NCBI GenBank assembly: GCA_009930415.1
Contig: RZYG01000001.1
Location: forward strand, 1 to 51,556
DNA from: Spartobacteria bacterium
GTDB lineage: Bacteria; Verrucomicrobiota; Kiritimatiellia; CAIQIC01; Lenti-01
DNA length: 51,556 nt
Direction of reading: 5' to 3'
Below are positions 7,961 through 34,537 of this stretch, one piece after another (positions within the stretch are counted from its first letter, which is position 1; every line of letters begins with the position of its first letter). Made by a program: the position numbers and the translations under genes. The notes beneath the pieces were generated by a model. It had not been told where the DNA came from. It was given only the letters and a program-made list of their open reading frames with translations, and made no database searches.

Positions 7961-10900
7961 TCACCCCAGCTCGACGAGGACGCGGCGTTCGCGGCCGTCG
8001 TCGACGAGGTGGATTTGCCGGTCGGGCTGGTCGGCGCCGTCCACGGACACGCGGCGGACGGCGGCGGCGGCGGGGGCGGTCTTGAGGATTTCGACGTGGT
8101 AGAAGGTGTTGCGGTAGCGGTAGGTGAGCTTGAAGCCGGGCCAGCCCGCCGGGAGCAGGGGTGCGAAGGTCAGGACGTCGGCCTCGAGGCGCATGCCGAG
8201 GAGGTCTTCGACGAGCAGGCGGTAGAGCCACGACGCGGAGCCGGTGTACCAGCTCCAGCCGCCGGCGCCTTCGTGGCCGGCGGCGGTGTAGACGTCGGCG
8301 GCGAGCACGTAGGGTTCGAGCTTGTAGACGGCGACGTGTTCGGGGGTGTCGCCGTGGCGGATGGGGTTCAGGAGCTGGAACAGATCCCAGGCGACGTCGC
8401 CTTGGCGGAGCGCGGCGAAGGCCATGGCGACCCAGACGGCGGCGTGGGTGTACTGTCCGCCGTTTTCGCGCACGCCGGGGACGTAGCCTTTGATATAGCC
8501 GGGATCCCACGGGGCGGAGTCGAACGGCGGATCGAAGAGGCGCACGAGGCGGTGTTTGGAATCGACGAGACGTTCGCGGACGGCCTGCAAGGCGGTGCGG
8601 GCGCGGGCGGGGTCGCCGGCGCCGCTGAGCGCGGCCCAGCTCTGGGGGATGGAATCGATCTGGCATTCGGGGCTCTGGGCGGAGCCCAGCGAGGTGCCGT
8701 CGTCGAAGAACGCGCGGAGGTACCATTTCCCGTCCCAGGCCTGGGCATCGAGGTTCGCGGACAGGCGTTGGGCTTCGCGGTCGCAGACGGCGGCGAAGTC
8801 GGCGTCGCCGCGGCGGGCGGCCAGCCCGCCGAATTCGCGCAGGACGCGGTGCAGGAAGAACCCGAGCCAGACGCTTTCGCCGCGGCCCTGGTGGCCGACG
8901 CGGTTCATGCCGTCGTTCCAGTCGCCGGCGCCCATGAGGGGCAGGCCGTGGGCGCCGAAGCGCAGGGCGCGGCGGATGGCGCGCGCGGCGTGTTCGTAGA
9001 GCGGAGCCTGTTCGTCGGTGACGCGCGGCTGGTCGTAGACGGATTCCTCGTGGTCGGCGAGGGCGCGGGCCTCGAGGAAGGGGCGGGTTTCGTCGAGGAT
9101 GCCGACGTCGCCCGTGGCGGCGACGTAGCGGCAGAGGACGAGGGGCAGCCAGAGCAGGTCGTCGGTGATGCGCGTGCGCACGCCGCGGCCGACGGGCGGG
9201 TGCCACCAGTGCTGGACGTCGCCGTCGGTGAATTGGCGGGACGCGCTCAGCAGGAGGTGTTCGCGGGTCAGCCACGGGCATTCGCGCAGGAAGGCGAGGG
9301 AGTCCTGGAGCTGGTCGCGGAAGCCGTAGGCGCCGCCGGACTGGTAGAAGCCGGTGCGGCCCCAGAAGCGCGACGACAGGATTTGGTAGAGCAGCCAGTG
9401 GTTGACGAGGAAATCGACGGACGGATCGGGCGTTTCGACGTAGATGCCGCCGAGCTGGCGTTTCCAGAACGCCCAGACTTCTTCGAGCGCCTGGCGGGCG
9501 CCGCTGGGGCCGGCCTGGTGGCGCAGCCAGCCGCGCGCTTCGTCTTCGCTGCGCGCGGCGCCGAGGCAGAAGACGATCTGGACCTGCTCGCCGGGCGGAA
9601 TCTCGAGCCGGGTCTGGATGGCGGCGCAGGGATCGAGCCCGGCGCCGACGCGGTTGGACAGATGCTCGCGCCGCAGGGCGGCGGGCGCGGCGAGCGACCC
9701 GTTGCGGCCGATGAATTCGGTGCGGTCGGCGGTCAACGTGCGGTCGTCGCCGCTGCAATGGAAGAAGGCGAGGCGGTCGGCGAAATCGAGGCTGAAGGCG
9801 TTCTGGGCGAAGATGGCGCCGCTCTGCGGATCGAGGTGCGTGACGACGTGCATGGCCTGCTGGTCGCGGCGCTCGCCGAGGACCCATTCGCAGTAGCCCG
9901 CCACGGACACGCGCCGCGGCCGGTCGGTGCGGTTGTGCAGCGCGATGGACGTGAACTTGAGCGGGGCGCTGACGGCGACGTAGACGGTGGTTTCGGAATA
10001 GATGCCGTTGCGCTCGTGCTCGAAGACGGTGTAGCCGTGGCCGTGGCGGCAGACGTAGGGAGCGGCGCGCGGCGCGGGGCCGGGCAGCGGCATCCAGAAG
10101 CGGCCGGTTTCTTCGTCGCGGACGTAGAACGTCTCGCCGCTGGGATCTTCGACGGCGTCGTTGGCCCAGGGCGTGAGCCGGAACTGGTGGGCGTTCTCGC
10201 TCCAGGTGGTCGCCGCGCCGGATTCGCTCACGACGGTGCCGAACTGCGGATTGGCCAGCACGTTGACCCACGGGGCGGGCGGCGTTTGGCCGGGCTCGAG
10301 CTGGACGACGTATTCGCGGCCGTCGGGCGTGAACCCGCCGAGGCCGTTGAAGAATTCGAGCTCGCGGGCGGGCGGCGGCGCCGGGAGCGGTTCGGTCTTG
10401 GGCGGCTCGCGCTCGGGCACGAGGTCGGGAACGTCGGCTTCGGAAACGACGCGCCGGTCGATCTGGTCGGCGAGGGCGCCGTAGCGGTCGCTGAAGACGA
10501 GCCGGGCGACGGCCCGGAACAGGATGCGGTCTTCCTCGGGCACCTGGTCGATATTGCGCGCGAAAATGCCGCCGGGCTGATCGAGCAGCTTGCCCTCCGT
10601 GCCGGCCTGCACGAGGCCGATGATGGCGTCGAGCAGGTCCTGGCGGTAGCCCGCAAAGGCCTCGGACCAGATGACGAGATCGGCTTCGAGGCCCTTCTGG
10701 CGCCAGTAGCCGTGGGCCTGTACGAGCTGGCGGACGAGGTCGAGGTTGGCGACGTCGGAAATGGACAGCAGCACGATGGGACGGTCGCCGGAGATGCCGT
10801 AGCTCCAGAGCGCGGACTGGTTTTTGCGGTTGGCGGCGATGGCGCTGGCGCGGCCGCGGCGGTGGGGGCCCGCGAAGAACAGGGATCCGGCCAAGCGGGC

Positions 10901-23085: not shown

Positions 23086-23179
23086 CGCGCACCTCCTGGT
23101 TCTGTTGGCCGGTCGTCGGCACCCGCTTCGAGGCGGCCACCATGCCGGATCGGAGGCGTGCGGTCAACCCGCCCGGACA

Positions 23180-23206
23180 TGGTCGGGAGGGGACTCGAAC
23201 CCCTAC
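23180..23206. repeat. att site: displaced 27-nt copy of the tRNA-Leu 3' end (distal junction of integrated element)
   Basis: tggtcgggaggggactcgaacccctac is identical to 34456-34482, and the preceding 'a' also matches. The sequence after 23206 does not continue a tRNA. Confidence 0.85.
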
Positions 23207-23255
23207 TCCTTTCCGGGCCTAAAAACACGCAAAAACCCTATATAATTGACCGCGC

Positions 23256-23283
23256 TTGACAACCTAAACAATGGCAGTATGAT
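23256..23283 (+). promoter_or_regulatory. sigma70-like promoter candidate for the integrase
   Basis: TTGACA (23256-23261), a 16-nt spacer, then TATGAT (23278-23283), about 30 nt upstream of the integrase ATG (23312). Confidence 0.4.
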
Positions 23284-23311
23284 TAGCAGGTAGAAAGGTA
23301 GGGCTGTCAAA

Positions 23312-24472
23312 ATGGGAAGTTTGCACAGGAGGCCTAACACGAAATTCTGGTGGGCGGCATGGTATGGCCCGGACGGGCGGCAGATTTACCGCTCCACGAA
23401 ATGCACGGATCGGAACGATGCCGCGCAAGTGCTGGCGACATGGGAAAAGGTGTCGAGCCGGGCGAGGGCCGGGGTGCTGACGGAAGAACAGGTGCGCCGG
23501 GTGGCGGCGGATATGTTCTTCCGGGCGACGGGCGACACGGTGAAGCGGGCCACCGTCCAAGAGTTTCTGGAAGGGTGGGCCAAGCGGAAGGAACTGGAAG
23601 TGGCCGATGCTTCCGCTGGCGAGTATCGCCGGATTGCCGAGGGCTTCATTGAACATCTGAGGGGGAGGGCGGAGAAGGACATATCCCAAGTGACCCCGGC
23701 ACAGGTGACGGCGTGGCGCGACTTGACGGCGGGGAGGGTGTCCGCTGGGACGTGCAACAAGTATTTGAAGATCCTCCGGGGGGCATGGAACCAAGCGTTG
23801 CGGGAGGGCGTGGCGGCATCCAATCCGTTTGCGGCGGTGCGGACGTTGAAGGCGCGTCAATCGTTTAAGACAACCCGCCGGGCCTTCACGCTGGATGAAA
23901 TGCGGCGGATTCTGAAAGTAGCGGACGGGGAATGGCTGGGCATCATTCTTTTCGGCCTATACACGGGCCAGAGGCTATCCGACATAACGGGCCTTGCTTG
24001 GAACCAGATTGACCCGGCGGAAGGCGTGGTGCGCTTTGTGACCGCCAAGACGGGGGCGGTGCTGGATATTCCTCTCGCCGCGCCCGTGCTGGACTGGATC
24101 GGCAAGGCCCGCGTGCCGAAATCCGCCCATGCCCCGGTGTTCCCCACGGCGGAGGCTTCCACCGTTTCCCAAAACTCCAAAGCCTTTGCAAAGATTCTTG
24201 TGGCGGCAGGATTGCGGAAGGAACTCCCGAACCACAAAGGCACAGGCAGGGGGCGGAGTGCCAAGCGGGAGGCATCGGAAGTGACGTTCCATTGCCTCCG
24301 CCACACGGCCACAAGCCTATTGAAAAACGCCGGGGTGTCGGACGTGGTGGCGATGGAAATCATCGGCCACAAGACGGAAGCTATCAGCCGGGCCTATACG
24401 CATATTGAACAGAAAACCATTAAGCGGGCGATTGATGCGTTGCCCGACGTGACGAAGGCGGTGCGGAAGTGA
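23312..24472 (+). CDS. int: tyrosine recombinase / phage-type integrase
   Basis: N-terminal SAM-like/arm region. Catalytic signature readable: GLYTGQRLSDITGLAW (Arg I), FHCLRHTATSLL (HxxR), IGHKTEAISRAYTH (His...Tyr). Confidence 0.9.
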   Translation: MGSLHRRPNTKFWWAAWYGPDGRQIYRSTKCTDRNDAAQVLATWEKVSSRARAGVLTEEQVRRVAADMFFRATGDTVKRATVQEFLEGWAKRKELEVADASAGEYRRIAEGFIEHLRGRAEKDISQVTPAQVTAWRDLTAGRVSAGTCNKYLKILRGAWNQALREGVAASNPFAAVRTLKARQSFKTTRRAFTLDEMRRILKVADGEWLGIILFGLYTGQRLSDITGLAWNQIDPAEGVVRFVTAKTGAVLDIPLAAPVLDWIGKARVPKSAHAPVFPTAEASTVSQNSKAFAKILVAAGLRKELPNHKGTGRGRSAKREASEVTFHCLRHTATSLLKNAGVSDVVAMEIIGHKTEAISRAYTHIEQKTIKRAIDALPDVTKAVRK

Positions 24473-25290
24473 AATCCAATTCAAAATATATGCGTCCGTT
24501 TTCGTTGAACTTCACGGAGGATATGACGGTTGAAGAATTGGATGCCTCCAACCCAGTCGAAAATCTAAAAGCGTACGAAAAAAGCGGTTTAAAAAAAATC
24601 CATGATGCCAGTCGTGAGTTGCTCAATTCGGGGCATTCAAAGCTGGGGGCGGTAGCGTTTGGCGCGATAGATGCCGAACAGGTGTTGACGAACACCTTTG
24701 AACAGATTGACGAAATACTTTTGCAGGAAATGCAGGTTGGAAACCCCAAGACGGCGCAAGACCTTACTCCAAAACAAACGGCAATCGCCATGATTGATGG
24801 CCCGTTTCAAGACCTATGCGGCGATGCCGAAAGAAAAATCTTTGACGAAATAAGTGTTTCAACCGCGTTGGGGCTGGGCGCGGCATTGATGCGTTTGGCG
24901 ATTGAAAATCCGGGGAGCGAACTTGCCGCCAAACTGGACAAATTGCTTGGCATTGATTTCTCCAAAGCGGCGGAACTCGGGATGGAGCGGGTTATCAAAA
25001 AGCGGGACAAGCGGAAGCAGGACAAGCGCAAATCCGAAACGGATGCCAAACGGAAATCCGCCGCAATCGCCACGATGAAAAAACTTGTTGGTGAGCTTGG
25101 GCAAGTGAAGGCTTCCGAAGAAGTAGAACGCCGGATGAACAAACGGCACTATGAAAGCAATGGCGCGATTCAAAAAATCTTGCCGGTCTCTCCGGGGACA
25201 ATAAAACGCTGGTACAACGCCAAGTTTGAAAAAGAGAGGATTGCGCGAAAAGCGGCGGCGGAGGCGCGGCTAGGCCGTCGCCCATCTTAA
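24469..25290 (+). CDS. hypothetical protein, AT-rich cargo gene (acidic N-terminal half, Lys/Arg-rich C-terminal half with HTH-like tail)
   Basis: The GTG start overlaps the integrase stop (GTGA). Composition is markedly AT-richer than any other gene here: 24541-24600 is 23/60 G+C by hand count. The C-terminal ILPVSPGTIKRWYNAKF resembles a short HTH. No family recognised. Confidence 0.55.
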   Translation: MKSNSKYMRPFSLNFTEDMTVEELDASNPVENLKAYEKSGLKKIHDASRELLNSGHSKLGAVAFGAIDAEQVLTNTFEQIDEILLQEMQVGNPKTAQDLTPKQTAIAMIDGPFQDLCGDAERKIFDEISVSTALGLGAALMRLAIENPGSELAAKLDKLLGIDFSKAAELGMERVIKKRDKRKQDKRKSETDAKRKSAAIATMKKLVGELGQVKASEEVERRMNKRHYESNGAIQKILPVSPGTIKRWYNAKFEKERIARKAAAEARLGRRPS

Positions 25291-25483
25291 CCCGCCGCCG
25301 GAGCTGTGCGGGACTTCCGATTTTTCCGCACAAAGTTTCCCCGTCATGCGCTTGCGTGGCGGGGCTTTTCTTTTTGTGCGCGGGGCATCAATGGGACGCA
25401 CAACGGGGATGGGTTTGATTAGACGCGTCAACGAAGTATTAGGCGGCGCAGGGCTGGCCAGCGTTGACGCGGAGAATCGAAAC

Positions 25484-25711
25484 ATGAATGCAAATCAGAT
25501 CGTGAACGGGGCCGGGAACGAGGTTTGGGATCGGCTACCCAACAAGGGGTATTACTTGGGAATGTCCCGCCCCTATGTCTACCAGCTAATCAATCGGGGC
25601 GACGTGAAAACCGCCCTTATCAAATCGCCGGGGCGCGTGCGCGGCATCCGCCTTGTGTGGCGGCCTAGCGTGCTGGCGTTCATTGAAAAGAACGTCGTGA
25701 AGGTGGGCTAG
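25484..25711 (+). CDS. excisionase/AlpA-type helix-turn-helix DNA-binding protein
   Basis: ATG 25484 lies 7 nt after GGAGAA. YYLGMSRPYVYQLINRGDVKTALIKSPGRVRGIRLVWRPSVLAFIE matches the HTH_17/excisionase pattern. The upstream part of ORF 25346 is probably not translated. Confidence 0.65.
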   Translation: MNANQIVNGAGNEVWDRLPNKGYYLGMSRPYVYQLINRGDVKTALIKSPGRVRGIRLVWRPSVLAFIEKNVVKVG

Positions 25712-25714
25712 ACC

Positions 25715-25906
25715 ATGAAGCACACCAACGAAAGGGCCGCGCCCTCTCCCAAGAACGCGGCCAGCAACACCAACACGCGGAACCATACCACGGCGACGGG
25801 CCGGGGCGCAAGGGCGCGGAAGCATCTAACGCGGGAACAGCGGGGCCAATTTTGGCAGACCGTGGGCGACCTGATTGAACAGGCGGCGGGGAGGGCGGCG
25901 AAATGA
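25715..25906 (+). CDS. small hypothetical protein
   Basis: 63 aa. Starts 4 nt after the preceding stop and overlaps the next start (ATGA), so it is probably translated. No homology recognised. Confidence 0.4.
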   Translation: MKHTNERAAPSPKNAASNTNTRNHTTATGRGARARKHLTREQRGQFWQTVGDLIEQAAGRAAK

Positions 25907-26901
25907 ATCTTCCCATTTCCAAGATCGTCGCGGATGGCGGAATCCAGACCCGCGAGGGAACCAATCCGGCAACAGTAAACGAGTATGCGGACGCGATGCA
26001 GGACGGAGCCGCGTTTCCTCCCGTGGTGGTATTCCATGACGGCACTCAATACTTTTTGGCCGATGGCTTCCACCGGGTAGCCGCCGCCGAAAGTTTGGAC
26101 TGGAAGGAAATCGAAGCCGACGTGCGCGAGGGCGGACGGTTGGACGCACTTTGGTTTGCGCTTTCCGCGAACAAGGCCCACGGCGCGAGAATGACGCGGG
26201 CCGACGTGCGGAAGGCAATCGGGTTGGCACTCCAGGAATTTCCAGAGCGGAGCAACCGCGATATCGGCAAACAAATCGGATGCGACCACAAGACGGTTGA
26301 AGCCGCCCGACGTGTCCATGAGGCAGGTGGGGAAATTCCCCACGTGGAAAATCGGACGGGGGCCGATGGCAAGACCTACCCGGCCCGCCGGGAGCCGGAG
26401 CCCGAAGCCGTCGAAACGGAATCATCCGAACCGGATGCCGAACCAGACGGAACGGAAGATGCGAAGCCGGAGGGCGACGGAGAGGCAGAGGCGGAGCCCA
26501 CGGAAGAATTGCCGGAGGATGAATCCGGCGACGATGCCGAGGGGAAACCCCTCCCCACCTACAACGCGGTTGTGCGGGCGAATAACATTGCCTCCGCCAA
26601 AAAACGGTTGGCATCCGCATTCGGCCCCGGCGCGGTTGTGTCGGTTGAAAAGCAGACCTTTCCGAAGTCGAAGGCGGAGCGGTTGGGCCGCGCCGAAGGT
26701 TTCGTCGAGGATGCAAAAAGCATTGTAGAGGAATTGTTGGGCGAGATCGAGAGCCGCCGCGACAATATGCCGGAGAACCTACAGAACGGCGAAACGGCAG
26801 ACCGTCTTTCCGAATGCGCGGACGGATTGCAATCCATCGTGGACGCGCTGGGCGAGGTGGATTTTTCATCCATCGAATTTCCGGGAGCGTTTGGACAATG
26901 A
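25903..26901 (+). CDS. ParB N-terminal (ParB/Srx nuclease-like) domain protein with HTH and highly acidic linker
   Basis: ISKIVADGGIQTREGTNPATVNEYADAM...PPVVVFHDGTQYFLADGFHRVAAA is a ParB-box-type N-terminal domain. SNRDIGKQIGCDHKTVEAARR is an HTH. Residues encoded at ~26388-26540 are a long Asp/Glu-rich tract. Confidence 0.75.
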   Translation: MNLPISKIVADGGIQTREGTNPATVNEYADAMQDGAAFPPVVVFHDGTQYFLADGFHRVAAAESLDWKEIEADVREGGRLDALWFALSANKAHGARMTRADVRKAIGLALQEFPERSNRDIGKQIGCDHKTVEAARRVHEAGGEIPHVENRTGADGKTYPARREPEPEAVETESSEPDAEPDGTEDAKPEGDGEAEAEPTEELPEDESGDDAEGKPLPTYNAVVRANNIASAKKRLASAFGPGAVVSVEKQTFPKSKAERLGRAEGFVEDAKSIVEELLGEIESRRDNMPENLQNGETADRLSECADGLQSIVDALGEVDFSSIEFPGAFGQ

Positions 26902-27143
26902 GCAATCCCCGGACACCCCGCCAAGAGGAAAATTGGATTCTTGCGGGCCGTCAATGGCCCAACTGGACGGAGCCCGGAGCCCCCGACGCGCCGCCCATCC
27001 ATGAACCGAAGGAGCCGAACGGAAGAAACGCGCCGAGTTGGTGCGGGCTGGAATCCATCCACCGCACGGAAGAACAAATCCGCGCCGATGATGCCGAACT
27101 CGCCAAGCGCAAGGCGTTGAACGCCGGAAAGGTGGCCGCATGA
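26898..27143 (+). CDS. small hypothetical protein
   Basis: 81 aa (MSNPRTPRQEENW...). ATGA overlaps with both the upstream and the downstream gene. Confidence 0.4.
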   Translation: MSNPRTPRQEENWILAGRQWPNWTEPGAPDAPPIHEPKEPNGRNAPSWCGLESIHRTEEQIRADDAELAKRKALNAGKVAA

Positions 27144-28069
27144 AAGTTGAAAACGGCGCGGCGCGGAAATTCGATGAGGCGTTGCGAACCTGGCCCCCAG
27201 CCGGGAGCGGAGTACACGCCCACTTAATGACGGCGGCGAACCTTGCCGCGATTGCCGGGCTATCACCAGCGGAGGCGGAGGCCCGTATCCTTTCCACCAT
27301 ACCGCGCCCGCCTTCCCCCGGATCGGAAGTGGCGGCGGCGATTCGGAAGGCATACGACGCGCACAAGCCGGGGGAGCAATACGCGCCCCGGAAGATAGTC
27401 CCGCCAAAATCAAAGCCCTTGCCGATGACGCGGGAGGCGTTTATCCGCCGCGGCGACGGGGCGGCGGAGGTGGACTGGTGGGAACGCTCGCCTATCCGCA
27501 TTGACTGGGAGCCCGGCCCCCGCGATGCGCTTGCGGTGCTGGGGACGCTCTACGCCCCGGAGGAATATCTTTTCGTCGGGGAACGCTACGGGGCAGACGT
27601 GCGGACGGCGGGCGACTGGATGCGCCGGATTGAAGCCGGGGAACCCGTGCCGCCCCACTTCATTCCGAACCCCCTCACGGGGCAGGAGCATCCGTTGCCG
27701 GATGGGAAGCTATCGCGGCGCGGGGATTCCGCCGTCGCGTCTTTCCGTTTCGCGGTAGCGGAGTTTGACGGCATGGGCAAGCCGGAGCAACTGGCCTTTT
27801 GGTGGGGCTACCGTTCCGCGCCCATTGCGGCACTCATAGACACGGGCGGCAAATCCATCCACGCGATTCTAAAAGTGGATGCCCCCAGCCGGGAAGCATG
27901 GGAGGCGGAAATCGAAAATAAACTTTTCGCCCGCGTCTTGTGCCCGCTGGGGTGCGATGCCGCTTGCAGGAATGAAGCCCGCCTCTCACGTCTCCCCGGC
28001 CATTTTCGCCGGGAGAAAAACGCTTGGCAACGCCTCTTGTATTTGAACCCCGAAGGAATCCGCCGATGA
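27140..28069 (+). CDS. putative primase-polymerase (archaeo-eukaryotic primase superfamily-like) replication protein
   Basis: An ordered set of AEP-like motifs is readable: FRFAVAEFDG (acidic motif I), GGKSIHAILKV (sxH motif II), DAACRNEARLSRLPG (motif III-like R.PG). It lies immediately upstream of, and overlaps, the helicase gene. The assignment is by motif only. Confidence 0.5.
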   Translation: MKVENGAARKFDEALRTWPPAGSGVHAHLMTAANLAAIAGLSPAEAEARILSTIPRPPSPGSEVAAAIRKAYDAHKPGEQYAPRKIVPPKSKPLPMTREAFIRRGDGAAEVDWWERSPIRIDWEPGPRDALAVLGTLYAPEEYLFVGERYGADVRTAGDWMRRIEAGEPVPPHFIPNPLTGQEHPLPDGKLSRRGDSAVASFRFAVAEFDGMGKPEQLAFWWGYRSAPIAALIDTGGKSIHAILKVDAPSREAWEAEIENKLFARVLCPLGCDAACRNEARLSRLPGHFRREKNAWQRLLYLNPEGIRR

Positions 28070-29265
28070 ACCCCGTTGACGAAATGCTAAAGGAAACCGA
28101 AACCACGCGGGGCGAAACGCCGGAAGGCGCGGAAATCATCCGCCCTTATTCAACCCGCGCATGGGATGAACTGGCAGAGATGGAATTGACCCCGCCGGAA
28201 ATCGTTTGGGGCGGTTTCGCGCTGGGCGGTTCATGCGTGATATTCGGGCAGGGTGGGCTTGGAAAATCGCGCCTTGCTCTCAATCTCGCCCGCAATCAGG
28301 TGTTGGGCATCCCGTTCGCCGGGCTCCCTACCGCGCCGCGCCCCTTGCGGCATTTGATGATGGGATCTGAAAATTCCATCCATCGGTTGCAATCCGACGT
28401 GCGGAAGATGGGCGCGGGGCTGGCCCCCGAACAGGTTGCCAAGCTGGGGGTGCATACCCTACTTGCCACGCTGGAAGGCCCGGAGGATTCCCATATCAGT
28501 CTCGCCTCTCCCGCCAACGTGGAGAAGTGGGCCGCAACGCTGGAAGGCTGGCCCCCGGACGTTCTATGGGTTGACCCGTGGGGCGACGTGCTGGCGGGCG
28601 ATGCGAACGGCGACGAAGATACACGCGCCACCCTATCCGCCCTCCGGCGACTCTTGCGAAAGGTGAATCCATCCGCCGGGATGGGAATCCTAGCCCATGC
28701 CCGGACGGGGGCCAGGAACATCATGCAGGCAATCGGCTACGATGCCGCGAATTTCGGGAAGGGATCGAAAGCCCTCTATTCATCCGCCCGATGCGTTTGG
28801 AATCTCGCCCCCGGCGACGAAGGGGAAAACCCCTTGCTTGTGTGCGTCCATGCCAAGTCAAACGACGCGCCGAAATTCCCGCCTTTTGCCGTAAGCCTAG
28901 ACCCGGAAACGATGCTCTACACGCGGGCGGCGGATTTCGATTTTGACGGTTGGCAATCCGAGGTGGCGGCGCGGGCCAATGGCAAGGCCGGAACCCGCCG
29001 GGGGCCGCGCCTAACGGAAGATGATGCCTTTGACGCGCTGGGCGACGAAACGGGCACGGCGGCGGAGGTTCATCAAAAGTTGCGGGAGAAGGGGGCAACC
29101 CGCGATGAAGCCGACGATCTATGCAAGCGGTTGGTTGTGGCCGGGCGTTGGGAGCGGTGGAGGCCAGCCCTCCGGCATACCCCGGTTTATATCGGCCCCC
29201 CGGATGCCATGAACAGGCGGCGGAAACTGGTAGCGGAACAGGCGCAAGGGAGGTTTGAGGTATGA
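28066..29265 (+). CDS. RecA-fold replicative helicase/ATPase (AAA_25 / RepA-like)
   Basis: ATG 28066 overlaps the preceding stop. Walker A GQGGLGKSRLAL, Walker B VLWVDPWGD, then the typical ...ALRRLLRK...GILAHARTG layout of RepA/AAA_25 proteins. Confidence 0.7.
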   Translation: MNPVDEMLKETETTRGETPEGAEIIRPYSTRAWDELAEMELTPPEIVWGGFALGGSCVIFGQGGLGKSRLALNLARNQVLGIPFAGLPTAPRPLRHLMMGSENSIHRLQSDVRKMGAGLAPEQVAKLGVHTLLATLEGPEDSHISLASPANVEKWAATLEGWPPDVLWVDPWGDVLAGDANGDEDTRATLSALRRLLRKVNPSAGMGILAHARTGARNIMQAIGYDAANFGKGSKALYSSARCVWNLAPGDEGENPLLVCVHAKSNDAPKFPPFAVSLDPETMLYTRAADFDFDGWQSEVAARANGKAGTRRGPRLTEDDAFDALGDETGTAAEVHQKLREKGATRDEADDLCKRLVVAGRWERWRPALRHTPVYIGPPDAMNRRRKLVAEQAQGRFEV

Positions 29266-29432
29266 CGATTCCCGACAATTCCCGACGATTCCCGACAACT
29301 TCCCCGGAAAGCGTGAATTGCCCAGATTTACGATTTCCCCCCGCACTCCCCTTTAGGGGTGCGGGAAATCGTGAAATCGTCAATTCGGGGCGGCGAGACA
29401 TGAAAACAAGCGGAGGGGCCGGAAATCGTCAA
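29266..29432. repeat. putative replication origin: iterons plus long imperfect palindrome
   Basis: 3 x 10-bp direct repeats ATTCCCGAC(A/G) at 29268-29297. An imperfect 41-nt palindrome CGATTTCCC...GGGAAATCG at 29331-29371. GAAATCGT occurs at 29365, 29373 and 29422, the last two as GAAATCGTCAA. The region sits directly downstream of the helicase gene. Confidence 0.5.
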
Positions 29433-29449
29433 CGGAAAGGCGGCATGGA

Positions 29450-29725
29450 ATGAGCGTGCGCGTGATTCAAGTTGAAACGGCGGTTTTGGGAACCGGAAGG
29501 CCCGGCGATACATTCACGCTGGGCGGGCATCTCTATAGGGTGCGCGAGGTTCAATCCTACTTCAACGAGCGGGAGCAACACCGCATTGCCGTGGAAGTGG
29601 AGGCGGAATGCCAAGTGTGCGGGAAGCCTTATACCTACACAACGCACCGCCGCCCTACCTACATTCCCAAAACGTGCAAGGCGCACCGTTGGCAGGGGCC
29701 GCGCAAGGCAGGGGGCGAAGAATGA
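29450..29725 (+). CDS. small hypothetical protein with Cys-containing motif
   Basis: 91 aa, with GGAAAGG upstream. Contains ECQVCGKPY...KTCKAHRW, a possible zinc ribbon. Confidence 0.4.
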   Translation: MSVRVIQVETAVLGTGRPGDTFTLGGHLYRVREVQSYFNEREQHRIAVEVEAECQVCGKPYTYTTHRRPTYIPKTCKAHRWQGPRKAGGEE

Positions 29726-30309
29726 AAGCAGGATGTTGGCGCAACTTGGCGCAAGTATCGGCAGGGGGCAACTTGCCACAACATAACCCCCGGTTGAACA
29801 AAGGCGGCACGGTGGCGGACGCTACCCGCTACCCGGAACTATACCGGGGAACCTACTGGGGCGGTTTCGGGATGGACGCGAACGCGGATATGATAGGGCC
29901 GGAAATCATCCGCAACCGGGATGCGTTTGCGAAGCGTTGGAAATTGCGGCGGCGGGTTGACGCGGTGGGCCGATACCCGGCGCGGGAGGCGGGCACGGAT
30001 TTTGACCATCCCGAATGCTTCAAGGATGCCGAGGGGTGGGTTGTGCTGGTTGTGTCCAACTATGGAAGCATCCCGCCGCCCGCCGTTCTGGGCATGGTGC
30101 GGGTTGCGCCGATATATGGCCGGGGCGTTGGCTCATGGGTTGGGCGGTTTTCATCCGTGCGCGAACTCCGGGCGCGGCTGGATGCTTGCGGGGCCGCAGG
30201 GAGCCCGTTTGCCGTGCGATTGGACGCGGGCAGGGGCAACGCCGGGGGCACGGTGCGCGGCGCGTCTAGGGGGCATCGTGGAGCCCGTGCGGGGGTGCGG
30301 CGGGGATGA
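29722..30309 (+). CDS. hypothetical protein
   Basis: The internal ATG of ORF 29608..30309 overlaps the preceding stop (ATGA). No family recognised. The start is uncertain. Confidence 0.35.
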   Translation: MKAGCWRNLAQVSAGGNLPQHNPRLNKGGTVADATRYPELYRGTYWGGFGMDANADMIGPEIIRNRDAFAKRWKLRRRVDAVGRYPAREAGTDFDHPECFKDAEGWVVLVVSNYGSIPPPAVLGMVRVAPIYGRGVGSWVGRFSSVRELRARLDACGAAGSPFAVRLDAGRGNAGGTVRGASRGHRGARAGVRRG

Positions 30310-30343
30310 ACGAGAAACAAGACAACCAAAGAGGAAACCAACC

Positions 30344-30862
30344 ATGAACAAAGAGAGCATTAAAGAACAGGCGGCGGGGTATGTGGGGATTATGAGTGCC
30401 GCCGTAGATGAAGCATTGGACAAGGGCGGCGGGATGATTTCCGCAAGCCTCTTGCGCCCGATATTGGAGGCTCATTTCAAATCCGCCGGGGTTGCCTTCC
30501 AGCCGCGCATGAATCGGCTTGCGCTGGGGCTGGCCAAACGGCGCATGGTGGAGCAGTCGAATGCGGAATTGCGGGAGGCAACGAAACATTGGACTCCCGA
30601 AATGCGGGCACGCTATGCCCCGGAGCGTATGCGGCAACTTGGGGAACTGGCGCGATTGACCGAGGACATTTGCAAACTGCCCGCCCCGGCGGAGTATGCC
30701 GAGACGTTGGCGGGGCAGTTGGAGAGGGGAGAAATCGAAACCGCCCAATCCGCCGCCGCGTGGCTGAAAGAGTTTGCGGCGGCATACCGGGAGGCGGGGC
30801 GCGAACTTGACGGGCCTACCCCGCGCACGCGCATGGGGCAAGGTGAGGTTGCCCATGAGTGA
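30344..30862 (+). CDS. hypothetical helical protein (position compatible with a small terminase or other packaging accessory; unverified)
   Basis: ATG 30344 is preceded by GAGGAAA. 172 aa (MNKESIKEQAAGYVGIMSAAVDEAL...). The upstream part of ORF 29921 is rejected. Confidence 0.45.
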   Translation: MNKESIKEQAAGYVGIMSAAVDEALDKGGGMISASLLRPILEAHFKSAGVAFQPRMNRLALGLAKRRMVEQSNAELREATKHWTPEMRARYAPERMRQLGELARLTEDICKLPAPAEYAETLAGQLERGEIETAQSAAAWLKEFAAAYREAGRELDGPTPRTRMGQGEVAHE

Positions 30863-31061
30863 GTGCCAAGCAAAGACGGCGGACGGGAGCCCGGCGGGAA
30901 ATCGGTTGGTTCCCCCGAAGGGGGAACGGGCTAGCCGGGGGTTGGCGCACACCGGGACTTTTCGCGTAAAACAAAACGAAAAAAAACAGCAGGGGGTGGT
31001 AGATGCCCCGGCGTCAAGGTACTTCCAGAGAATCAAACGACGGGAACCGCGCACACCGTAA
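30855..31061 (+). CDS. small basic hypothetical protein
   Basis: 68 aa starting inside the previous gene's last codons. Weak evidence. Confidence 0.25.
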   Translation: MSECQAKTADGSPAGNRLVPPKGERASRGLAHTGTFRVKQNEKKQQGVVDAPASRYFQRIKRREPRTP

Positions 31062-31110
31062 TCCCGCGCCCGTCTATCGGCTTTCCAACCATGAACAAAG
31101 GCAACCAACC

Positions 31111-33201
31111 ATGAAGCAGAAAAAGAAAAATCCCAGCCCCAGAGCGAACGAAACCCGGCGGCAACGTCGGGCGGCGGCATCCCTTATTGAACGGCGAAAG
31201 TGCGCGAATCCCAAGCGGCGGGCCGAACTGGAAGCGGCCCCGGCGGAATGGTTGCGCCACTACTTGCACGCGGCATTCCCCCTCCCGTTTGGCGAGGTTC
31301 ATTTGCGGATGATAGAGGCGGCGGCGCGGGCGGTGGAAACGGGCTCCGGGATGGCGTGCGCGGCCCCCAGAGGCACGGGAAAATCTACGGTGCTTTGGGG
31401 GGTGGCGTTGTGGGCGTTGCTCTCCGGGCGTGCCCGCTTCCCGGTGGTGGCGGGCTGGGCGCACGCGGCGGCGCGTCGGATGTTGCGGAAATGGATTTCC
31501 ACGCTGGCGGAGAATCCGCGACTGGCGGCGGACTATCCCGAAGCAACCGCGCCCTTTTGGGAGTCAACGCACGCAAACCGCTTGAAGCATACCGCGTGGG
31601 CCGATACCGGGGAGGCGACGGGGGCGGACGTTCAAACGGGCGGCGGCACGGTGGTTTTGCCGTCCGGGTTGGGCGCGTTGGGAGCCGTGAGCATTTCGGG
31701 GAACACGCGGGGGTTATCGGTTGGGCTCCCCGATGGAAGCACGGCGCGGCCCGACGTGCTTTTTCTGGACGATCCGCAATCCAAAGAGGTTGCCGAATCC
31801 CCGAAGCTGGCGCGGGCGGCGGTGGAGAAAATCGAAGGGGATTTGTTTTCCGTGGCCGGGCCGGATTCCCGCCTTTCCATCATGGTTGCCTGTACGGTGG
31901 TTTCGTCGGGCGACGTGGCGGAGCATTTCCTATCGCACCCCGATTTCGAGGGCGTGCGGGTGGGCCAGATTGTGAAATGGCCCGATGGATGGACGGATGA
32001 CAACTCCCCCACGAGGGCGTTGTGGGATGAATGGAACAAGGCGCGGGTGGCCGGGGTGTCCAACCATGACGGAGGGAAGGCGGCGCGGGGCTACTACGCG
32101 GCGCACGCGGCGGAGATGACGGCGGGCATGGAGGTTTCATGGCCGGAACGATTCGACAGGAAACGCGGCGACCCGGACGCATATTTCGCGGCGATGCTGG
32201 ATTTTTACAGGCTGGGGGAGCGGGCGTTCATGGCGGAGCGTCAAAACGAGCCCCTTGCATCCGGGGAGGCATCCGTTTTTGAACTCCCGCACAACCTTGT
32301 TGCCGGGAAGGTGTCGGGGGTGGCGCGGCGCGTGGCCCCGGAGCATTCCGTTGGATTGGTTGGCATGGTTGACTTGAACGCGGACGGGGCGCGGTGGGCG
32401 TTGGCGACTTGCACAAACTCCGCCGCCCTTTCCATCGTGGACTATGGAACCTTCCCCGGAGGCGGGCGGATGCTGGTTGGGCCGGGAGAATCCGAAGCGG
32501 TTGCAATCATGCGCGGATTGTCGGGGCTGGATGCGTTGCTCCGGGGCGTGGCCGTTATGCAGGGCGAAACTCAAATGCCGCTGGATTTGCTTTTGCTGGA
32601 TTCGGGTTGGCTCATGCAACCCGTCTTTGACTGGTTGGCAGGGCCGGGGCGCACGTCGCCGTTGCCGTGGTTTGCTTCCCGTGGCTGGGGGAGCCGGAAC
32701 TATCGGCCCAACGGGAAAAGCGTTATCGGGAGGCCGGGCGACGGTTGGCACGTTGCCGATTGGCAACGCAAGGGGCGCGTGGTGATTCACGATGCGGATG
32801 CGTGGCGGTATCGGCAACAAAAGGCATGGTTGCTCCCCGTGGGGGCTCCCGAATCCATTTGCCTATTCGGAACGCCCGGCACGCGGCACGACCATTTCGC
32901 GGATGGCGTGGTGGCGGAGCGGTTGGTTGCCTTTGTCCAAACGGATGCGGGGCCGCTTTACAAGTGGCAGGGAACGCCGGGGCTCCGCAACGATTTCGGG
33001 GACGTTGCAACGGGCTTGTGCGTGGCGGCAAATCGGTTGGGCTTCAATCCAACCGGGATGCGCGTCAACCCCAAGCTCAAAAAACATAGGGCGGTGATTT
33101 CTTGGATGCAGTTTGGCGGCGGTGAAAACCACGCGCCCCCGGCCCCCGGAGGGCATCGTGCCGTGATAGGCCGCCCCTCCCGCCGTGGTTTCGGGTGGTA
33201 G
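31111..33201 (+). CDS. phage terminase large subunit-like protein (ATPase + RNaseH-like nuclease)
   Basis: Walker A CAAPRGTGKSTVLW and Walker B PDVLFLDDPQ. The C-terminal half has spaced acidic motifs (GMVDLNADG, LLLLDSGW, VIHDADAWRY) as in TerL nuclease domains. The N-terminal layout (HLRMIEA...PRGTGKS...LWALL) resembles Mu/COG5362-type TerL. The start could instead be 31003. Confidence 0.55.
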   Translation: MKQKKKNPSPRANETRRQRRAAASLIERRKCANPKRRAELEAAPAEWLRHYLHAAFPLPFGEVHLRMIEAAARAVETGSGMACAAPRGTGKSTVLWGVALWALLSGRARFPVVAGWAHAAARRMLRKWISTLAENPRLAADYPEATAPFWESTHANRLKHTAWADTGEATGADVQTGGGTVVLPSGLGALGAVSISGNTRGLSVGLPDGSTARPDVLFLDDPQSKEVAESPKLARAAVEKIEGDLFSVAGPDSRLSIMVACTVVSSGDVAEHFLSHPDFEGVRVGQIVKWPDGWTDDNSPTRALWDEWNKARVAGVSNHDGGKAARGYYAAHAAEMTAGMEVSWPERFDRKRGDPDAYFAAMLDFYRLGERAFMAERQNEPLASGEASVFELPHNLVAGKVSGVARRVAPEHSVGLVGMVDLNADGARWALATCTNSAALSIVDYGTFPGGGRMLVGPGESEAVAIMRGLSGLDALLRGVAVMQGETQMPLDLLLLDSGWLMQPVFDWLAGPGRTSPLPWFASRGWGSRNYRPNGKSVIGRPGDGWHVADWQRKGRVVIHDADAWRYRQQKAWLLPVGAPESICLFGTPGTRHDHFADGVVAERLVAFVQTDAGPLYKWQGTPGLRNDFGDVATGLCVAANRLGFNPTGMRVNPKLKKHRAVISWMQFGGGENHAPPAPGGHRAVIGRPSRRGFGW

Positions 33202-33220
33202 AGGGCGGAGCATTTACGAA

Positions 33221-33526
33221 ATGAACAAACCAACGAAAGGGCGAGACATGAAAAGCAAAAAGAAAATCCGGGCGGAGATAGAGAGCTTGAAAGAGGAAAA
33301 GTTGAATTGCGTTGCTACGGTTGAACTGGAATTGCAAGGGCTGGCGAATTGGCTTGGGGCGCAATTCCCCGGCGCACCGTCCAACCTATTGTGGGCGGTG
33401 GCGAAGTACGAGCCCAACGTGCGGTGGAAAGCGGAGTGGAACCGCAAAGGCGCGGCGGCGGTTCAACGGCGGATTCGGCGACGCATTCGCCAATTGGAAG
33501 CGATGCCCAAACGGGCGCGGCGTTGA
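33221..33526 (+). CDS. small coiled-coil hypothetical protein
   Basis: 101 aa (MNKPTKGRDMKSKKKIRAEIESLKEEKL...). Confidence 0.4.
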   Translation: MNKPTKGRDMKSKKKIRAEIESLKEEKLNCVATVELELQGLANWLGAQFPGAPSNLLWAVAKYEPNVRWKAEWNRKGAAAVQRRIRRRIRQLEAMPKRARR

Positions 33527-33555
33527 CGGCGGCGAGGCCCTACGGGGCGACGGAT

Positions 33556-33948
33556 TCAACCGCGCCGCGACTTGGCGGGGGCGAGATGGGCCAGACGATC
33601 CGGGAGCGGGGCGACGGGCCGGGCTGGGGCGGCGAGGGATTCCCGCATGGCTTCCACGGATTCCGGCGATAGCAGGAAACGCCCTTCCACTTTTTCGCCC
33701 GTCAACTTTCCTTCCGCTATCCAACGGGAGAGGGTGGCGGGATGCTTGCCGAGATACTTTGCCGCCGCCGATGCGCTCATTCCGCGCTGGGGCTGGGCCG
33801 GGGCTGGATCGGCTATGGTATCGCAAGCGGCGATGATGCGGGCGCGTTGGGCGGGCGATAGGGCGGAATCCGTATCCAGCACGGCGACGATTGCGGCGCG
33901 GGTTGCTGGGCTCATTGTGGCGGGGCTCTTGGGTTGCGCTGTTTTCAT
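33556..33948 (-). CDS. helix-turn-helix (excisionase/MerR-type HTH_17-like) DNA-binding protein; candidate island regulator
   Basis: ATG 33946-33948 is preceded by GGGAG on the minus strand. MSASAAAKYLGKHPATLSRWIAEGKLTGEKVEGRFLLSPESVEAM is an HTH_17-like segment. This is the only minus-strand gene in the island, and an AT-rich repeat-containing region lies upstream of it. Confidence 0.55.
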   Translation of the reverse strand: MKTAQPKSPATMSPATRAAIVAVLDTDSALSPAQRARIIAACDTIADPAPAQPQRGMSASAAAKYLGKHPATLSRWIAEGKLTGEKVEGRFLLSPESVEAMRESLAAPARPVAPLPDRLAHLAPAKSRRG

Positions 33949-34455
33949 GCTCCCTACTTTCCCCGAAGGGGAAAGGCATTGCAAGCCGAAAATGAGGCAC
34001 ACTTGCGTTTGCAATCATGCGCAACATAACTAATATTATCCGACATAGACTAAAACCGCCGATGCAACTGCCATATATGCAACGGGATATGGAAGGCGCA
34101 AAACAGGGGTGTTTTCGCCCCTTTTGAAAAATCGGCGTAAGTCTATGTTTTGCGGGCTGGAAATGAGCCCGCCGGGGCATGGATTCCGGGCTGGGCTACC
34201 GTTCCACGCCCCCAGCCGGGGCCGTAGGATGCTTGTCAAGCCTTCCCGCCTTCCGCTCCATGCGGAGACAGGGGCGGGGGGTAGATCGGGGGCCGCGCAG
34301 GGGGTAAAGCGGCGGAGCAACGCGGCATCCCGCCACAACCAAAACAAGCGGTGACAGCGGGTGGGTTATTAGCAGTGGGCATTAGCAGTATGGCCGATTA
34401 TTGACGCGCTAAAACGAATAATCATCAATATTCATGGGCATAATGTGGGAATAAA

Positions 34456-34537
34456 TGGTCGGGAGGGGACTCGAACCCCTACGGATTGCTCCACCAGCTC
34501 CTAAGGCTGGCGCGTCTGCCAATTTCGCCACCCGACC
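34456..34537 (-). tRNA. tRNA-Leu (anticodon UAG), integration target; its 3' 27 nt (34456-34482) form the proximal att repeat
   Basis: The reverse complement folds as a cloverleaf. Acceptor GGTCGGG/CCCGACC, anticodon stem CCAGC/GCTGG with loop CTTAGGA, a long variable arm, T-arm AGGGG-TTCGAGT-CCCCT, discriminator A. Confidence 0.9.

Follow-up and report, generated by a model that had tools for sequence, protein, structure and literature searches.

Which kind of mobile element carries an integrase, its own replication genes and a large terminase, and none of the genes for a virus shell? The question was raised by a locus at a tRNA-Leu gene on contig RZYG01000001.1 of a Spartobacteria bacterium (assembly GCA_009930415.1), which we analyzed within the whole 51,556-nucleotide stretch of DNA (the window). 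Overall, we consider it reasonably likely that the island is an intact integrative, helper-dependent phage satellite of an undescribed family in bacteria of the PVC superphylum. Genes lie on the plus strand unless otherwise stated.

Insertion at the tRNA-Leu gene

The island is bounded by an exact 28-nt direct repeat (23179-23206 and 34455-34482), which gives an element length of 11,276 bp. The first-pass annotation had reported an exact direct repeat of the tRNA-Leu 3′ end, which stands, and a length of 27 nt, which we correct to 28 nt. It had also placed the left copy outside any tRNA; in agreement, the only tRNA that ARAGORN and Rfam found here is the minus-strand tRNA-Leu(tag) at 34456-34537, with none at the left copy. 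The repeat occurs twice in the window even when three mismatches are allowed, and 0 of 100 shuffles gave a match. The proposed search for empty sites in related genomes was successful: six metagenome contigs of the same species, with flanks 99.1-99.8% identical and an identical YitT, carry the arrangement yitT–tRNA-Leu–fabZ–lpxA without the island, and yitT directly adjoins the tRNA-Leu. Therefore, the island is a true insertion polymorphism, a precise insertion at tRNA-Leu with an empty-site counterpart, and its repeat is not one of a dispersed tRNA-derived family.

At attL (23179-23211), the exact repeat is followed by 5 nt (TCCTT) matching the native tRNA of the empty sites, and thus 33 nt of native sequence are kept, not 28. 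At the other end, the repeat search placed the attR copy at 34455-34482, and the tRNA-Leu(UAG) is intact according to ARAGORN, Rfam and the empty-site comparison. Its variable-arm stem (34483-34492) carries three compensatory pair swaps relative to the empty-site allele, and a single simple crossover does not account for the att junctions. Two ATTAGCAG motifs, 13 nt apart (34368-34388, plus strand), are candidate integrase arm sites near attR; the pair is also present near attR of the related island L096. The composition of the island differs from that of its surroundings, with 61% GC compared with 67% in the flanks and GC3 values of 0.55-0.75 compared with 0.87-0.91 in host genes.

Upstream of int lie a sigma-70-like promoter match (23256-23283, plus strand; TTGACA-16-TATGAT, 11/12, a consensus match only) and one copy of an ATTAGCA motif at 23282. 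The tyrosine integrase (23312-24472, 386 aa) matched the Pfam families Phage_integrase (2e-17) and Phage_int_SAM_5 (2e-5), and all of its catalytic residues are present (R218, H327xxR330, H353 and Y362). It is followed by an orphan cargo gene of 273 aa (24469-25290; GC3 0.55, the lowest GC of the island) that had no match in Pfam, PHROGs, NCBIfam or PADLOC. The next gene (25484-25711) encodes a 75-aa protein with an AlpA/excisionase-type HTH_17 match under the Pfam cutoff (4.5e-4) and 98.7% identity to its counterpart in L096, in which the adjoining 63-aa ORF (25715-25906) is weakly conserved (43% over 49 aa, E 0.002). A second DNA-binding protein of the HTH_17/excisionase family (152 aa) is encoded divergently near the right end (33556-34014, minus strand). 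Its Pfam HTH_17 match exceeds the cutoff (2e-6), and it also matched TIGR01764 excisionase (9e-5), phrog_66 (3e-6) and, weakly, small-terminase PHROGs (6e-4); it is a candidate Xis or regulator.

Replication module and small open reading frames

The ParB N-terminal-domain-like protein (25903-26901, 332 aa) matched phrog_17439 (1e-19) and the ParB-like phrog_1033 (4e-14), with a Pfam ParB_N match of only 0.006, and has counterparts of 50-55% identity in islands L004 and L005. An AEP-like primase-polymerase (27140-28069, 309 aa; phrog_2597 DNA primase, 4e-15) follows, which matched the PrimPol AEP domain 6zp9 weakly (E 0.27) and shares the GGKSIH and RLPG motifs with it. The third component is a RecA-fold AAA_25 helicase-type ATPase of approximately 399 aa (28066-29265; Pfam 3e-19). 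A putative replication origin (29264-29440) comprises four 10-bp iterons, GAC(G/A)ATTCCC (29264-29304), the palindrome CGATTTCCCCCCGCAC...GTGCGGGAAATCG and inverted iteron-like copies; a 63-aa ORF overlapping the iterons (29262-29453) is probably not a gene. Three small ORFs separate the origin from the terminase region. The 91-aa ORF (29450-29725) gave weak matches only (Pfam Phage_attach 0.012, phrog HNH 0.007) and has no assigned function, the 145-aa ORF (29872-30309) had no matches in Pfam, PHROGs or PADLOC, and the 172-aa ORF (orf172, 30344-30862) has a homolog of 71% identity in L093, an island without a terminase gene, and therefore is not linked in transfer to that gene.

The gene order first read from the sequence, namely integrase, orphan, HTH, ParB_N, AEP, RecA-fold helicase, iterons, small ORFs, TerL, helical ORF and divergent HTH, was recovered in all its classes, the weaker matches being those of the short HTH (4.5e-4, below the Pfam cutoff), of ParB_N in Pfam (0.006) and of the AEP against 6zp9 (E 0.27).

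The large terminase and its island family

Judged by sequence and predicted structure, the large ORF at 31111-33201 encodes a genuine large terminase (TerL, GpA-like; PHROG 38, 3e-21). Its reading as a TerL-like ATPase-nuclease was upheld by this match and by a structural model that matched only phage large terminases; its length of 732 aa was not, and is likely 696 aa, since the gene most likely begins at 31111, where the NCBI record also places its start, rather than at 31003. The GTGKST and LFLDDP strings noticed earlier belong to Walker A (AAPRGTGKST, 31360-31389) and Walker B (LFLDDPQ, 31759-31779), and the RNase H-like nuclease has Asp421, Asp497 and Asp631. Both motifs are invariant across the TerL family, and so are the Walker A Lys, the Walker B Asp-Asp and the nuclease Asp residues. 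All significant Foldseek matches of the AlphaFold model (pLDDT 90) were phage TerLs, including those of PhiV-1, HK97, Sf6 and T4; BFVD gave another 204 matches at E ≤ 1e-3, and nearly every named entry in the top 50 was a terminase. Identity to any cultured phage TerL was at most 29%, over half of the protein. Purifying selection acts on the island TerLs (dN/dS 0.16-0.23).

Approximately 70 nt upstream of terL, a non-coding block, CGTCAAGGTACTTCCAGAGaATCAAACGA (31012-31040, plus strand), is conserved with L096 and L097, and the DNA further upstream is unrelated; this block is a candidate regulatory or packaging site. Immediately downstream, 33221-33526 encodes a basic helical-hairpin protein of 101 aa, which is also immediately 3′ of TerL in L096, L097 and L009 and approximately 2 kb downstream in L005. 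It has six representatives among 1.8 billion proteins, was not found in related phages and gave no fold match.

TerL homologs of at least 48% identity reside in similar tRNA-bounded islands of 10-13 kb in Kiritimatiellia, Victivallales and Lentisphaerae. A common plan of integrase, HTH, primase-helicase and TerL was found at tRNA-Ala (L001; 48-nt repeat, 11,362 bp), tRNA-Met (L005; 13.3 kb), tRNA-Arg (L008/L029; 10.2 kb) and in L033, with tRNA-Gly at its 3′ end; L004 and L096 also follow this gene plan, on contigs in which the two ends are not both visible. The integrases and primase-helicases vary, and no island has a portal. TerL is the only protein present in every island of this plan, the one constant phage-derived gene of the family. 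Because these islands are similarly built and independently integrated with TerL as the constant, the satellite reading is strengthened.

More distant homologs (25-43% identity) belong to phages and immediately precede a lambda-type portal gene. Almost all of the 52 IMG/VR relatives have Portal_2 next after TerL, as do the phage-type loci L031, L032, L014 and L030; in at least three phage loci, the portal is in turn followed by a ClpP-type protease. In a neighbour-joining tree, the island TerLs form a derived group nested among portal-linked phage TerLs (nearest phage L032, 43% identity), which places their ancestry in phages. These relationships bear on the idea of an autonomous, integrative plasmid-like element whose terminase-like nuclease-ATPase resolves its own concatemers and which spreads without phages, by vesicles or transformation. 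The replication module, which is complete and includes iterons and a ParB-like protein, would suit such an element, no helper was identified, and vesicle movement has been proposed for cargo-carrying tycheposons. However, the closest non-island TerL relatives are all portal-linked, the modeled TerL keeps a disordered tail at its C terminus, as is typical of terminases that dock to a portal, and we know of no report of TerL-fold proteins working outside capsid packaging. We regard this idea as improbable.

The mosaic relative L093, otherwise unrelated and sharing only orf172, carries a methyltransferase and a ResIII helicase as cargo in place of TerL; therefore, islands of this kind need not carry TerL. 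Some TerL relatives have an N-terminal phosphoribosyltransferase domain fused to TerL, often with an ERCC4 nuclease next. No small terminase was recognizable in the island; since the equivalent gene is unrecognizable even in the related phages, the island may still have one. L093, the fusions and the missing small terminase, together with a GmrSD-type defence gene elsewhere in the window, would fit a replicative, integrative, cargo-carrying island of the tycheposon type, in which TerL is anti-phage cargo, an interference or defence nuclease-ATPase directed at an infecting lambda-like phage, either poisoning its packaging or cutting its DNA, and does not package the island itself. We hold this to be unlikely, though the least so of the alternatives. 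A pure decoy would not need invariant motor and nuclease residues or purifying selection on the whole TerL, TerL alone is common to every island of the plan while integrases and replication modules differ, and PADLOC gave no defence-system match except a marginal P-loop match (E 0.005). Moreover, in known satellites, interference does not preclude self-packaging.

Proposed packaging without virion genes

The absence of portal, capsid, tail and lysis signatures noted in the first-pass annotation was borne out, and the profile-HMM checks that it proposed confirmed TerL, as did structure prediction, and found no virion protein among the island ORFs. Pfam and PHROGs gave no portal, capsid, protease, tail or lysis match, and purpose-built clade-specific portal and protease HMMs, run with filters off, gave nothing (best E 0.8). 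With HMMER filters off, the related island loci likewise contained no portal or protease. A decayed remnant of a lambda-like prophage, stripped of its structural genes, would explain a phage-derived TerL and an integrase at a tRNA site. This origin is disfavoured and very unlikely: several lineages have islands of this compact plan (10-13 kb) at different tRNAs, with their att repeats intact, TerL remains intact and evolves under purifying selection, no portal or protease gene fragments were found, and the replication genes are of a satellite or plasmid type. A complete miniature virus with a capsid and portal too divergent to recognize could be sought in the genes with no assigned function, namely the 273-aa orphan and approximately 2 kb of small ORFs (91, 145, 172 and 101 aa). 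TerL-type packaging needs a portal of at least approximately 350 aa and an HK97-fold capsid protein of at least approximately 250 aa. The island has no room for both, and the one unassigned ORF that is conserved across the family encodes the 101-aa helical hairpin, whose fold is not that of a capsid protein; we give this possibility almost no weight.

For the satellite, we infer helper dependence, excision, replication, packaging into helper capsids and perhaps packaging of multimers. Insertion of the 11.3-kb element into the 3′ part of tRNA-Leu(UAG), and its excision, would be the work of the tyrosine integrase, probably together with the divergent excisionase-type HTH protein. The excised element would replicate from the iteron origin with its own AEP primase-polymerase, AAA_25 helicase and ParB-like protein. 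The GpA-type TerL, with its catalytic residues intact, would then cut the replicated DNA and pump it into procapsids of a lambda-like helper with a Portal_2-type portal, diverting capsids from that phage; the 101-aa partner may assist. Packaging as multimers is possible because the island is approximately one-quarter to one-third the size of the related phage contigs (39-55 kb). No packaging site was identified in the island, no prophage in the rest of the window, and neither an island-type relative nor an attP-like junction in IMG/VR.

Similar to PICIs (SaPIs and Gram-negative EcCI-type islands, approximately 10-15 kb), the island lies between att sites, has an integrase gene at one end, encodes a small HTH regulator and a primase-helicase replicon of its own, lacks virion and lysis genes, and presumably spreads in helper capsids. 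However, PICIs redirect packaging through a small terminase, Rpp/Ppi or capsid-size factors and use the large terminase of the helper, whereas the island has a large terminase and no recognizable small terminase or capsid-morphogenesis gene. In known satellites, TerL is supplied by the helper; in the literature consulted, cfPICIs are the only described satellites with their own terL, always alongside capsid, portal and terS. Of the cfPICI set, which also includes protease, head-tail adaptor and connector, the island shares terL alone. P4-like satellites are likewise tRNA-integrated, approximately 11 kb long and equipped with an integrase, an AlpA-type HTH and a primase-helicase, and their helper is a cos-type phage. 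In contrast, the island has no Psu, Sid, Delta or Epsilon homologs, and it carries its own TerL, whereas P4 relies on the P2 terminase acting at a cos site that the two share. The marine tycheposons/VEIMEs are also modular and tRNA-targeting, combining integration, replication and a swappable third module; their satellite-like members, in cyanobacteria and SAR11 rather than PVC bacteria, have a single packaging gene, terS or a capsid protein, where the island has terL. The island TerL shares the two-domain fold and catalytic motifs of the lambda-type (GpA) terminases of tailed phages, but its gene is split from all other head genes and embedded in an integrative replicon.

On the best reading, its own TerL is the only packaging gene of this satellite family. 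Verrucomicrobia-related bacteria harbor a previously undescribed family of islands with an integrase, replication genes and TerL and no virus-shell genes, which probably spread by taking the capsids of lambda-like phages.

Insertion at the tRNA-Leu(UAG) gene

The only tRNA gene in the window, which comprises the 51.6 kb of host genome analysed here, identified with ARAGORN and Rfam, is tRNA-Leu(UAG) (34456-34537, minus strand), the 3′ part of which recurs exactly at 23179-23206. The first-pass annotation had read this as a 27-nt att repeat; the repeat proved exact and one nucleotide longer (28 nt), and no copy beyond these two was found in the window when up to three mismatches were allowed (0 of 100 shuffles matched). 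Counting the left copy but not the right, the island comprises 11,276 bp. Its GC content is 61.2%, compared with 67.2% in the flanks, and the GC3 of its genes is 0.55-0.75, compared with 0.87-0.91 for host genes. The left flank carries the chromosomal genes yidC, a csgG-like gene, a permease gene, a PLP enzyme gene and yitT, and the right flank carries the ordinary chromosomal genes fabZ and lpxA. Empty sites were sought through an exact-protein look-up of YitT, which yielded six metagenome contigs (L035-L040). As had been anticipated for an unoccupied site, all six carry tRNA-Leu next to yitT (gene order lpxA–fabZ–tRNA-Leu(tag)–yitT) and lack the island; they are 99.1-99.8% identical to the window across 2.7-7 kb on each side of it, and the two flank alignments join inside the tRNA 3′ end. 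The island is a true insertion, at a site that is occupied in some genomes and empty in others.

The variable-arm stem of tRNA-Leu(UAG) (34483-34492) reads GGATTGCTCC at the occupied site and TCCTTGCGGA at the six empty sites (compare L035 5870-5880). The occupied-site stem is GGA...TCC where 6 of 6 empty sites have TCC...GGA; the DNA is otherwise nearly identical, and the difference corresponds to three compensatory exchanges of paired bases. At attL (23207-23225 region), the native sequence is kept for 33 nt, including TCCTT, and diverges thereafter. Neither simple crossover explains both ends: one within the 28-nt repeat leaves the variable arm at attR unaccounted for, and one in the anticodon loop leaves attL unaccounted for. 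Because the tRNA-derived repeat of related islands extends to the anticodon loop, the data suggest that the element brings its own tRNA 3′ half; attL, however, lacks the displaced native segment that would then be expected. Additionally, a pair of ATTAGCA(G/T) motifs 13 nt apart lies near attR both in the window (34368-34388) and in the close relative L096 (6155-6175), with one more motif near attL (23282); these are candidate integrase arm-binding sites.

All predicted island genes were searched against Pfam, and those without a clear Pfam assignment were also searched against PHROGs, NCBIfam and PADLOC. The island opens with a tyrosine integrase (23312-24472, +; Pfam 2e-17) with its catalytic residues present, followed by a 273-aa orphan (24469-25290, +) that matched no library, the PADLOC search for this cargo gene being likewise empty. 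PICIs place an AlpA, Stl or MerR-type regulator next to int; here the candidate beyond the orphan is a 75-aa HTH_17-like protein (25484-25711, +), whose match of 4.5e-4 is under the Pfam cutoff, and a second HTH_17/excisionase-family protein, of 152 aa (33556-34014, minus strand; 2e-6), passes the cutoff and sits at the far end of the island. Between them are a ParB_N-like protein (25903-26901, +; PHROG 1e-19 and 4e-14), an AEP-type primase (27140-28069, +; phrog_2597, 4e-15, and a weak PrimPol match with catalytic motifs in common), an AAA_25 ATPase (28066-29265, +; 3e-19), an iteron and palindrome region (29264-29440), three ORFs of 91, 145 and 172 aa without significant matches (29450-30862, +), the large terminase (TerL; 31111-33201, +) and a 101-aa ORF (33221-33526, +). 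The last is modelled as a helical hairpin (pLDDT 85) with no significant fold match, and it has just 6 representatives among 1.8 billion proteins. Overall, the island has been inserted precisely, is foreign in composition and carries both an intact integrase and a complete replicon.

Two further loci lie elsewhere in the window. A GmrSD_N and HNH protein resembling type IV restriction enzymes (5614-6927, +) lies in a low-GC patch (0.57-0.59), adjoined by an unassigned 319-aa ORF (6989-7948, +), and probably represents a small defence locus that was acquired separately. A 2,933-aa ORF (7961-16762, minus strand) looks by sequence like a cyclic glucan synthase or phosphorylase, because GH94 and glycoamylase domains occur in its counterpart on the empty-site contig L035.

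The large terminase and the search for virion genes

The large ORF of the island is a genuine large terminase. It matches PHROG 38 "terminase large subunit" (3e-21); Pfam terminase families gave no match even at E ≤ 1, many of its homologs match PF20454 GpA_nuclease, and PDB sequence searches returned P-loop noise only. An AlphaFold model (mean pLDDT 90.3), for which 51 sequences were aligned, gave 23 Foldseek matches in the PDB at E ≤ 1e-3, every one of them a phage large terminase or its ATPase domain (PhiV-1, HK97, Sf6, T4 gp17, D6E and P74-26). The matches to the PhiV-1, HK97 and Sf6 TerLs were full length, the Sf6 nuclease domain also matched, and the ATPase domain superposes on those of P74-26 and T4 gp17. 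Moreover, among 204 BFVD matches at E ≤ 1e-3, the named ones in the top 50 are almost all terminases. The protein has the two domains that characterize terminases, an ASCE ATPase at the N terminus and, at the C terminus, an RNase H-like nuclease whose acidic residues are conserved. Walker A (AAPRGTGKST) occupies residues 84-93 and Walker B (LFLDDPQ) residues 217-223; the ATPase residues K91 (Walker A Lys), D220 and D221 (Walker B Asp-Asp) are invariant across the 51 sequences, as are D421 and D631 in the nuclease, where D497 is present in at least 90% of sequences. The terminase assignment of the first-pass annotation therefore stands; its length of 732 aa probably does not, as the start is most likely at 31111, which gives 696 aa, the same as NCBI record NCD21333.1, annotated as a hypothetical protein of the "Spartobacteria bacterium" MAG.

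The accompanying proposal that virion genes are missing was borne out. No island gene matched portal, capsid, protease, tail or lysis families, and portal and protease HMMs built from related phages, run with HMMER filters off, reached a best E of 0.8 in any island locus. Neither a portal nor a protease was found in the window or in the other island loci, in contrast to the phage relatives with 25-43% identity, in which TerL does lie beside portal and head genes. If the island were a degraded prophage, genes for head, tail or lysis proteins would be expected, whole or as fragments; none was found in the island, and its compact architecture recurs in other genomes, both of which contradict decay. 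A cryptic complete virus, with virion genes too divergent to recognize, is disfavoured by too little coding capacity and by the lack of a conserved candidate capsid gene. Judged from its sequence, TerL is a selected, catalytically intact phage packaging enzyme in an element without virion genes.

The small terminase (TerS) is a less settled matter. Weak TerS PHROG matches of the 152-aa protein (6e-4) are accounted for by its HTH, and orf172 (30344-30862, +), the ORF upstream of terL, was set aside as a terminase-linked or TerS gene because a 71% identical homolog occurs in an island that lacks TerL. When the ORFs upstream of terL in the nearest phage and in other islands were compared with PHROGs, no TerS was recognized; since TerS escapes recognition even in that phage, the island may yet encode one.

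About 70 nt upstream of terL lies a 29-nt non-coding block (31012-31040; L096 2688-2716), near-perfectly conserved with the related loci L096 and L097, while the DNA further upstream is unrelated and the upstream genes differ. No exact copy was found in IMG/VR and, from its conservation, the block is a candidate regulatory or packaging site. A 19-nt inverted repeat (31092/32921) was set aside, as it is not conserved in L096.

Related islands and phages

TerL homologs with 48-88% identity lie in islands of like plan: an integrase, HTH_3 and HTH_17 proteins, a primase-helicase, small ORFs and then TerL. The primase-helicase differs among islands (D5_N/DUF5906, Toprim, or PriCT_2 with AAA_25); the ParB-like protein, the 101-aa protein and ERCC4 are each common to subsets; and TerL is the sole protein present in every island of this plan. 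Long tRNA-derived repeats bound L001 (tRNA-Ala, 48 nt, 11,362 bp), L005 (tRNA-Met, about 49 nt, 13.3 kb) and L008 (tRNA-Arg, 54 nt, 10.2 kb), and the genome contigs are labelled Kiritimatiellia, Victivallales and Lentisphaerae. The close relative L096, which shares its study series with three of the empty-site contigs, has a 75-aa HTH protein, a TerL and a 101-aa partner that are 98.7%, 80% and 70% identical to those of the window, together with an unrelated primase-helicase, and its end runs into a similar tRNA 3′ sequence.

L003 (Logan SRR2107180, 11,392 bp) consists of the L001 element (L001 2079-13470) extended by 30 nt of overlap between the contig ends (k-1 for k = 31). We did not count it as a circular or tandem form, because the contig starts exactly where the repeat ends and an assembly-graph artefact is possible. 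An exact-pattern scan of IMG/VR for the right-end junction (attP) found nothing.

Several accessory features vary across the family. In one subgroup (proteins P0016, P0027 and P0022; loci L034, L029, L033, L009 and L013), a PF00156 phosphoribosyltransferase domain is fused to the N terminus of TerL, the end that in lambda gpA binds the small subunit. An ERCC4-family nuclease gene lies 3′ of TerL in six islands, L001 (12016-12567), L009, L013, L029, L033 and L034, and is absent from the window, L004, L005 and L006. An NrdR/Ogr-like zinc-ribbon protein of 58-104 aa with a KRKxWPxDY motif is common to phages and islands (L006 3108-3308; L004 13511-13762; L048 11898-12212; L049 3602-3802); its gene directly follows TerL in phages L048 and L049 and island L006, lies ~1.5 kb downstream in L004 and L005, and has no homolog in the window. 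Finally, the tRNA-bounded island L093 (Logan SRR8925820, 14.6 kb) encodes an integrase, a DnaB/AAA_25 helicase, an N6_N4 methyltransferase and a ResIII helicase and lacks TerL; it has only orf172 in common with the window island (71% aa, 77% nt), evidence that the islands of this community shuffle modules.

TerL might instead be defence or interference cargo. L093, with a methyltransferase and a helicase in place of TerL, is in line with such a role, and the phosphoribosyltransferase fusions and ERCC4 neighbours fit it as well. However, an active motor is favoured by the presence of TerL throughout the family and by the fact that its two catalytic centres are both conserved; interference and self-packaging could also coexist.

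The phage-type TerL homologs, at 25-43% identity, have a lambda-type Portal_2 gene within 0.3-3 kb downstream. This order was seen in L031, L032, L014, L030, L011 and nearly all of 52 IMG/VR loci, and at least three (L014, L031 and L032) have a ClpP-type protease downstream of the portal. In a neighbour-joining tree without support values, the TerLs of the islands group together in a derived position within this portal-linked set, with phage L032 nearest; dN/dS among the island TerLs is 0.16-0.23. A scan of JGI metagenomes with the window TerL returned phage-type relatives only, and no close island-type relatives were found in IMG/VR. In about one-third of related viral contigs, terL starts within about 300 nt of the contig end (IMG/VR loci L041, L042, L047, L050, L051, L057, L063, L065, L069, L071-L074 and L080-L083); we did not use these ends as genome termini or cos sites, as provirus trimming at a hallmark gene could also explain them.

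A proposed packaging model and its relation to known satellites

Overall, with the insertion real, TerL genuine, virion genes absent and the family recurrent, our analysis supports the earlier reading of a satellite-like island, and we provide a putative mechanism. The integrase, aided by the excisionase-type HTH protein, would excise the element, which would then replicate from the iteron origin. TerL would cut the island DNA and translocate it into the procapsids of a lambda-like helper, expected to carry a Portal_2-type portal as the phage relatives of TerL do. DNA recognition might be provided by the 101-aa basic helical protein, the 152-aa HTH protein or a helper small terminase. We lean towards this satellite mechanism with moderate confidence. 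Spread independent of phages, with TerL acting as a concatemer resolvase, would be a less probable explanation, for which we know of no precedent.

Known satellites fall into two groups. In the first, the helper terminase is retargeted by means of a small subunit, by an adaptor or via a shared cos site. The second, the cfPICIs, supplies the whole capsid-plus-packaging kit. In the satellite literature surveyed, PICIs, PLEs, tycheposons and VEIMEs depend on the helper TerL and carry terS, capsid or adaptor genes, and cfPICIs are the only terL carriers, always together with capsid, portal and terS; they encode their own major capsid protein, protease, portal, adaptor, connector, terS and terL, whereas the island has only terL. 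Like a PICI, the island is att-flanked and integrase-bounded within the usual ~10-15 kb (11,276 bp, 28-nt repeat, empty sites) and has its own primase-replicase module (the phrog_2597 primase, the AAA_25 ATPase and iterons). It differs in the hijack module, as no match to a small terminase, Rpp/Ppi or a capsid-size or other capsid-morphogenesis gene was found and a large terminase is present instead. The P4-like genes Psu, Sid, Delta and Epsilon have no counterpart in the window in Pfam or PHROGs, the NrdR/Ogr-like zinc ribbon being restricted in this check to the relatives L004-L006. The likeness to tycheposons concerns the modular layout, the feature that was compared.

A TerL-only strategy was not described in the satellite literature searched. 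Given that described satellites use the helper TerL or, as cfPICIs, carry terL alongside the capsid, portal and terS genes, the most fitting description of the element is that it belongs to a new, terminase-only variant of the phage-satellite-like islands, found in PVC bacteria. We further speculate, regarding the proposal as evenly balanced, that a new satellite family in the PVC superphylum (Verrucomicrobiota, Kiritimatiellia, Lentisphaerae/Victivallales) parasitizes lambda-like phages, carrying only its own TerL, captured from the helper lineage and in some members fused to a phosphoribosyltransferase or paired with ERCC4, to load its DNA into helper procapsids without a capsid, portal or recognizable small-terminase gene.

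If this is true, a satellite equipped with only the motor-nuclease subunit would represent a third strategy beside the two known groups, raising the questions of how a foreign TerL docks on the helper portal, where DNA recognition comes from and how an 11-kb genome fits a capsid sized for about 40 kb. Such islands, none of which is present in IMG/VR, would escape current detection tools, and the TerL clade would be a simple marker for finding them. Satellites would then reach phyla without described satellites, whose hosts are mostly uncultured.
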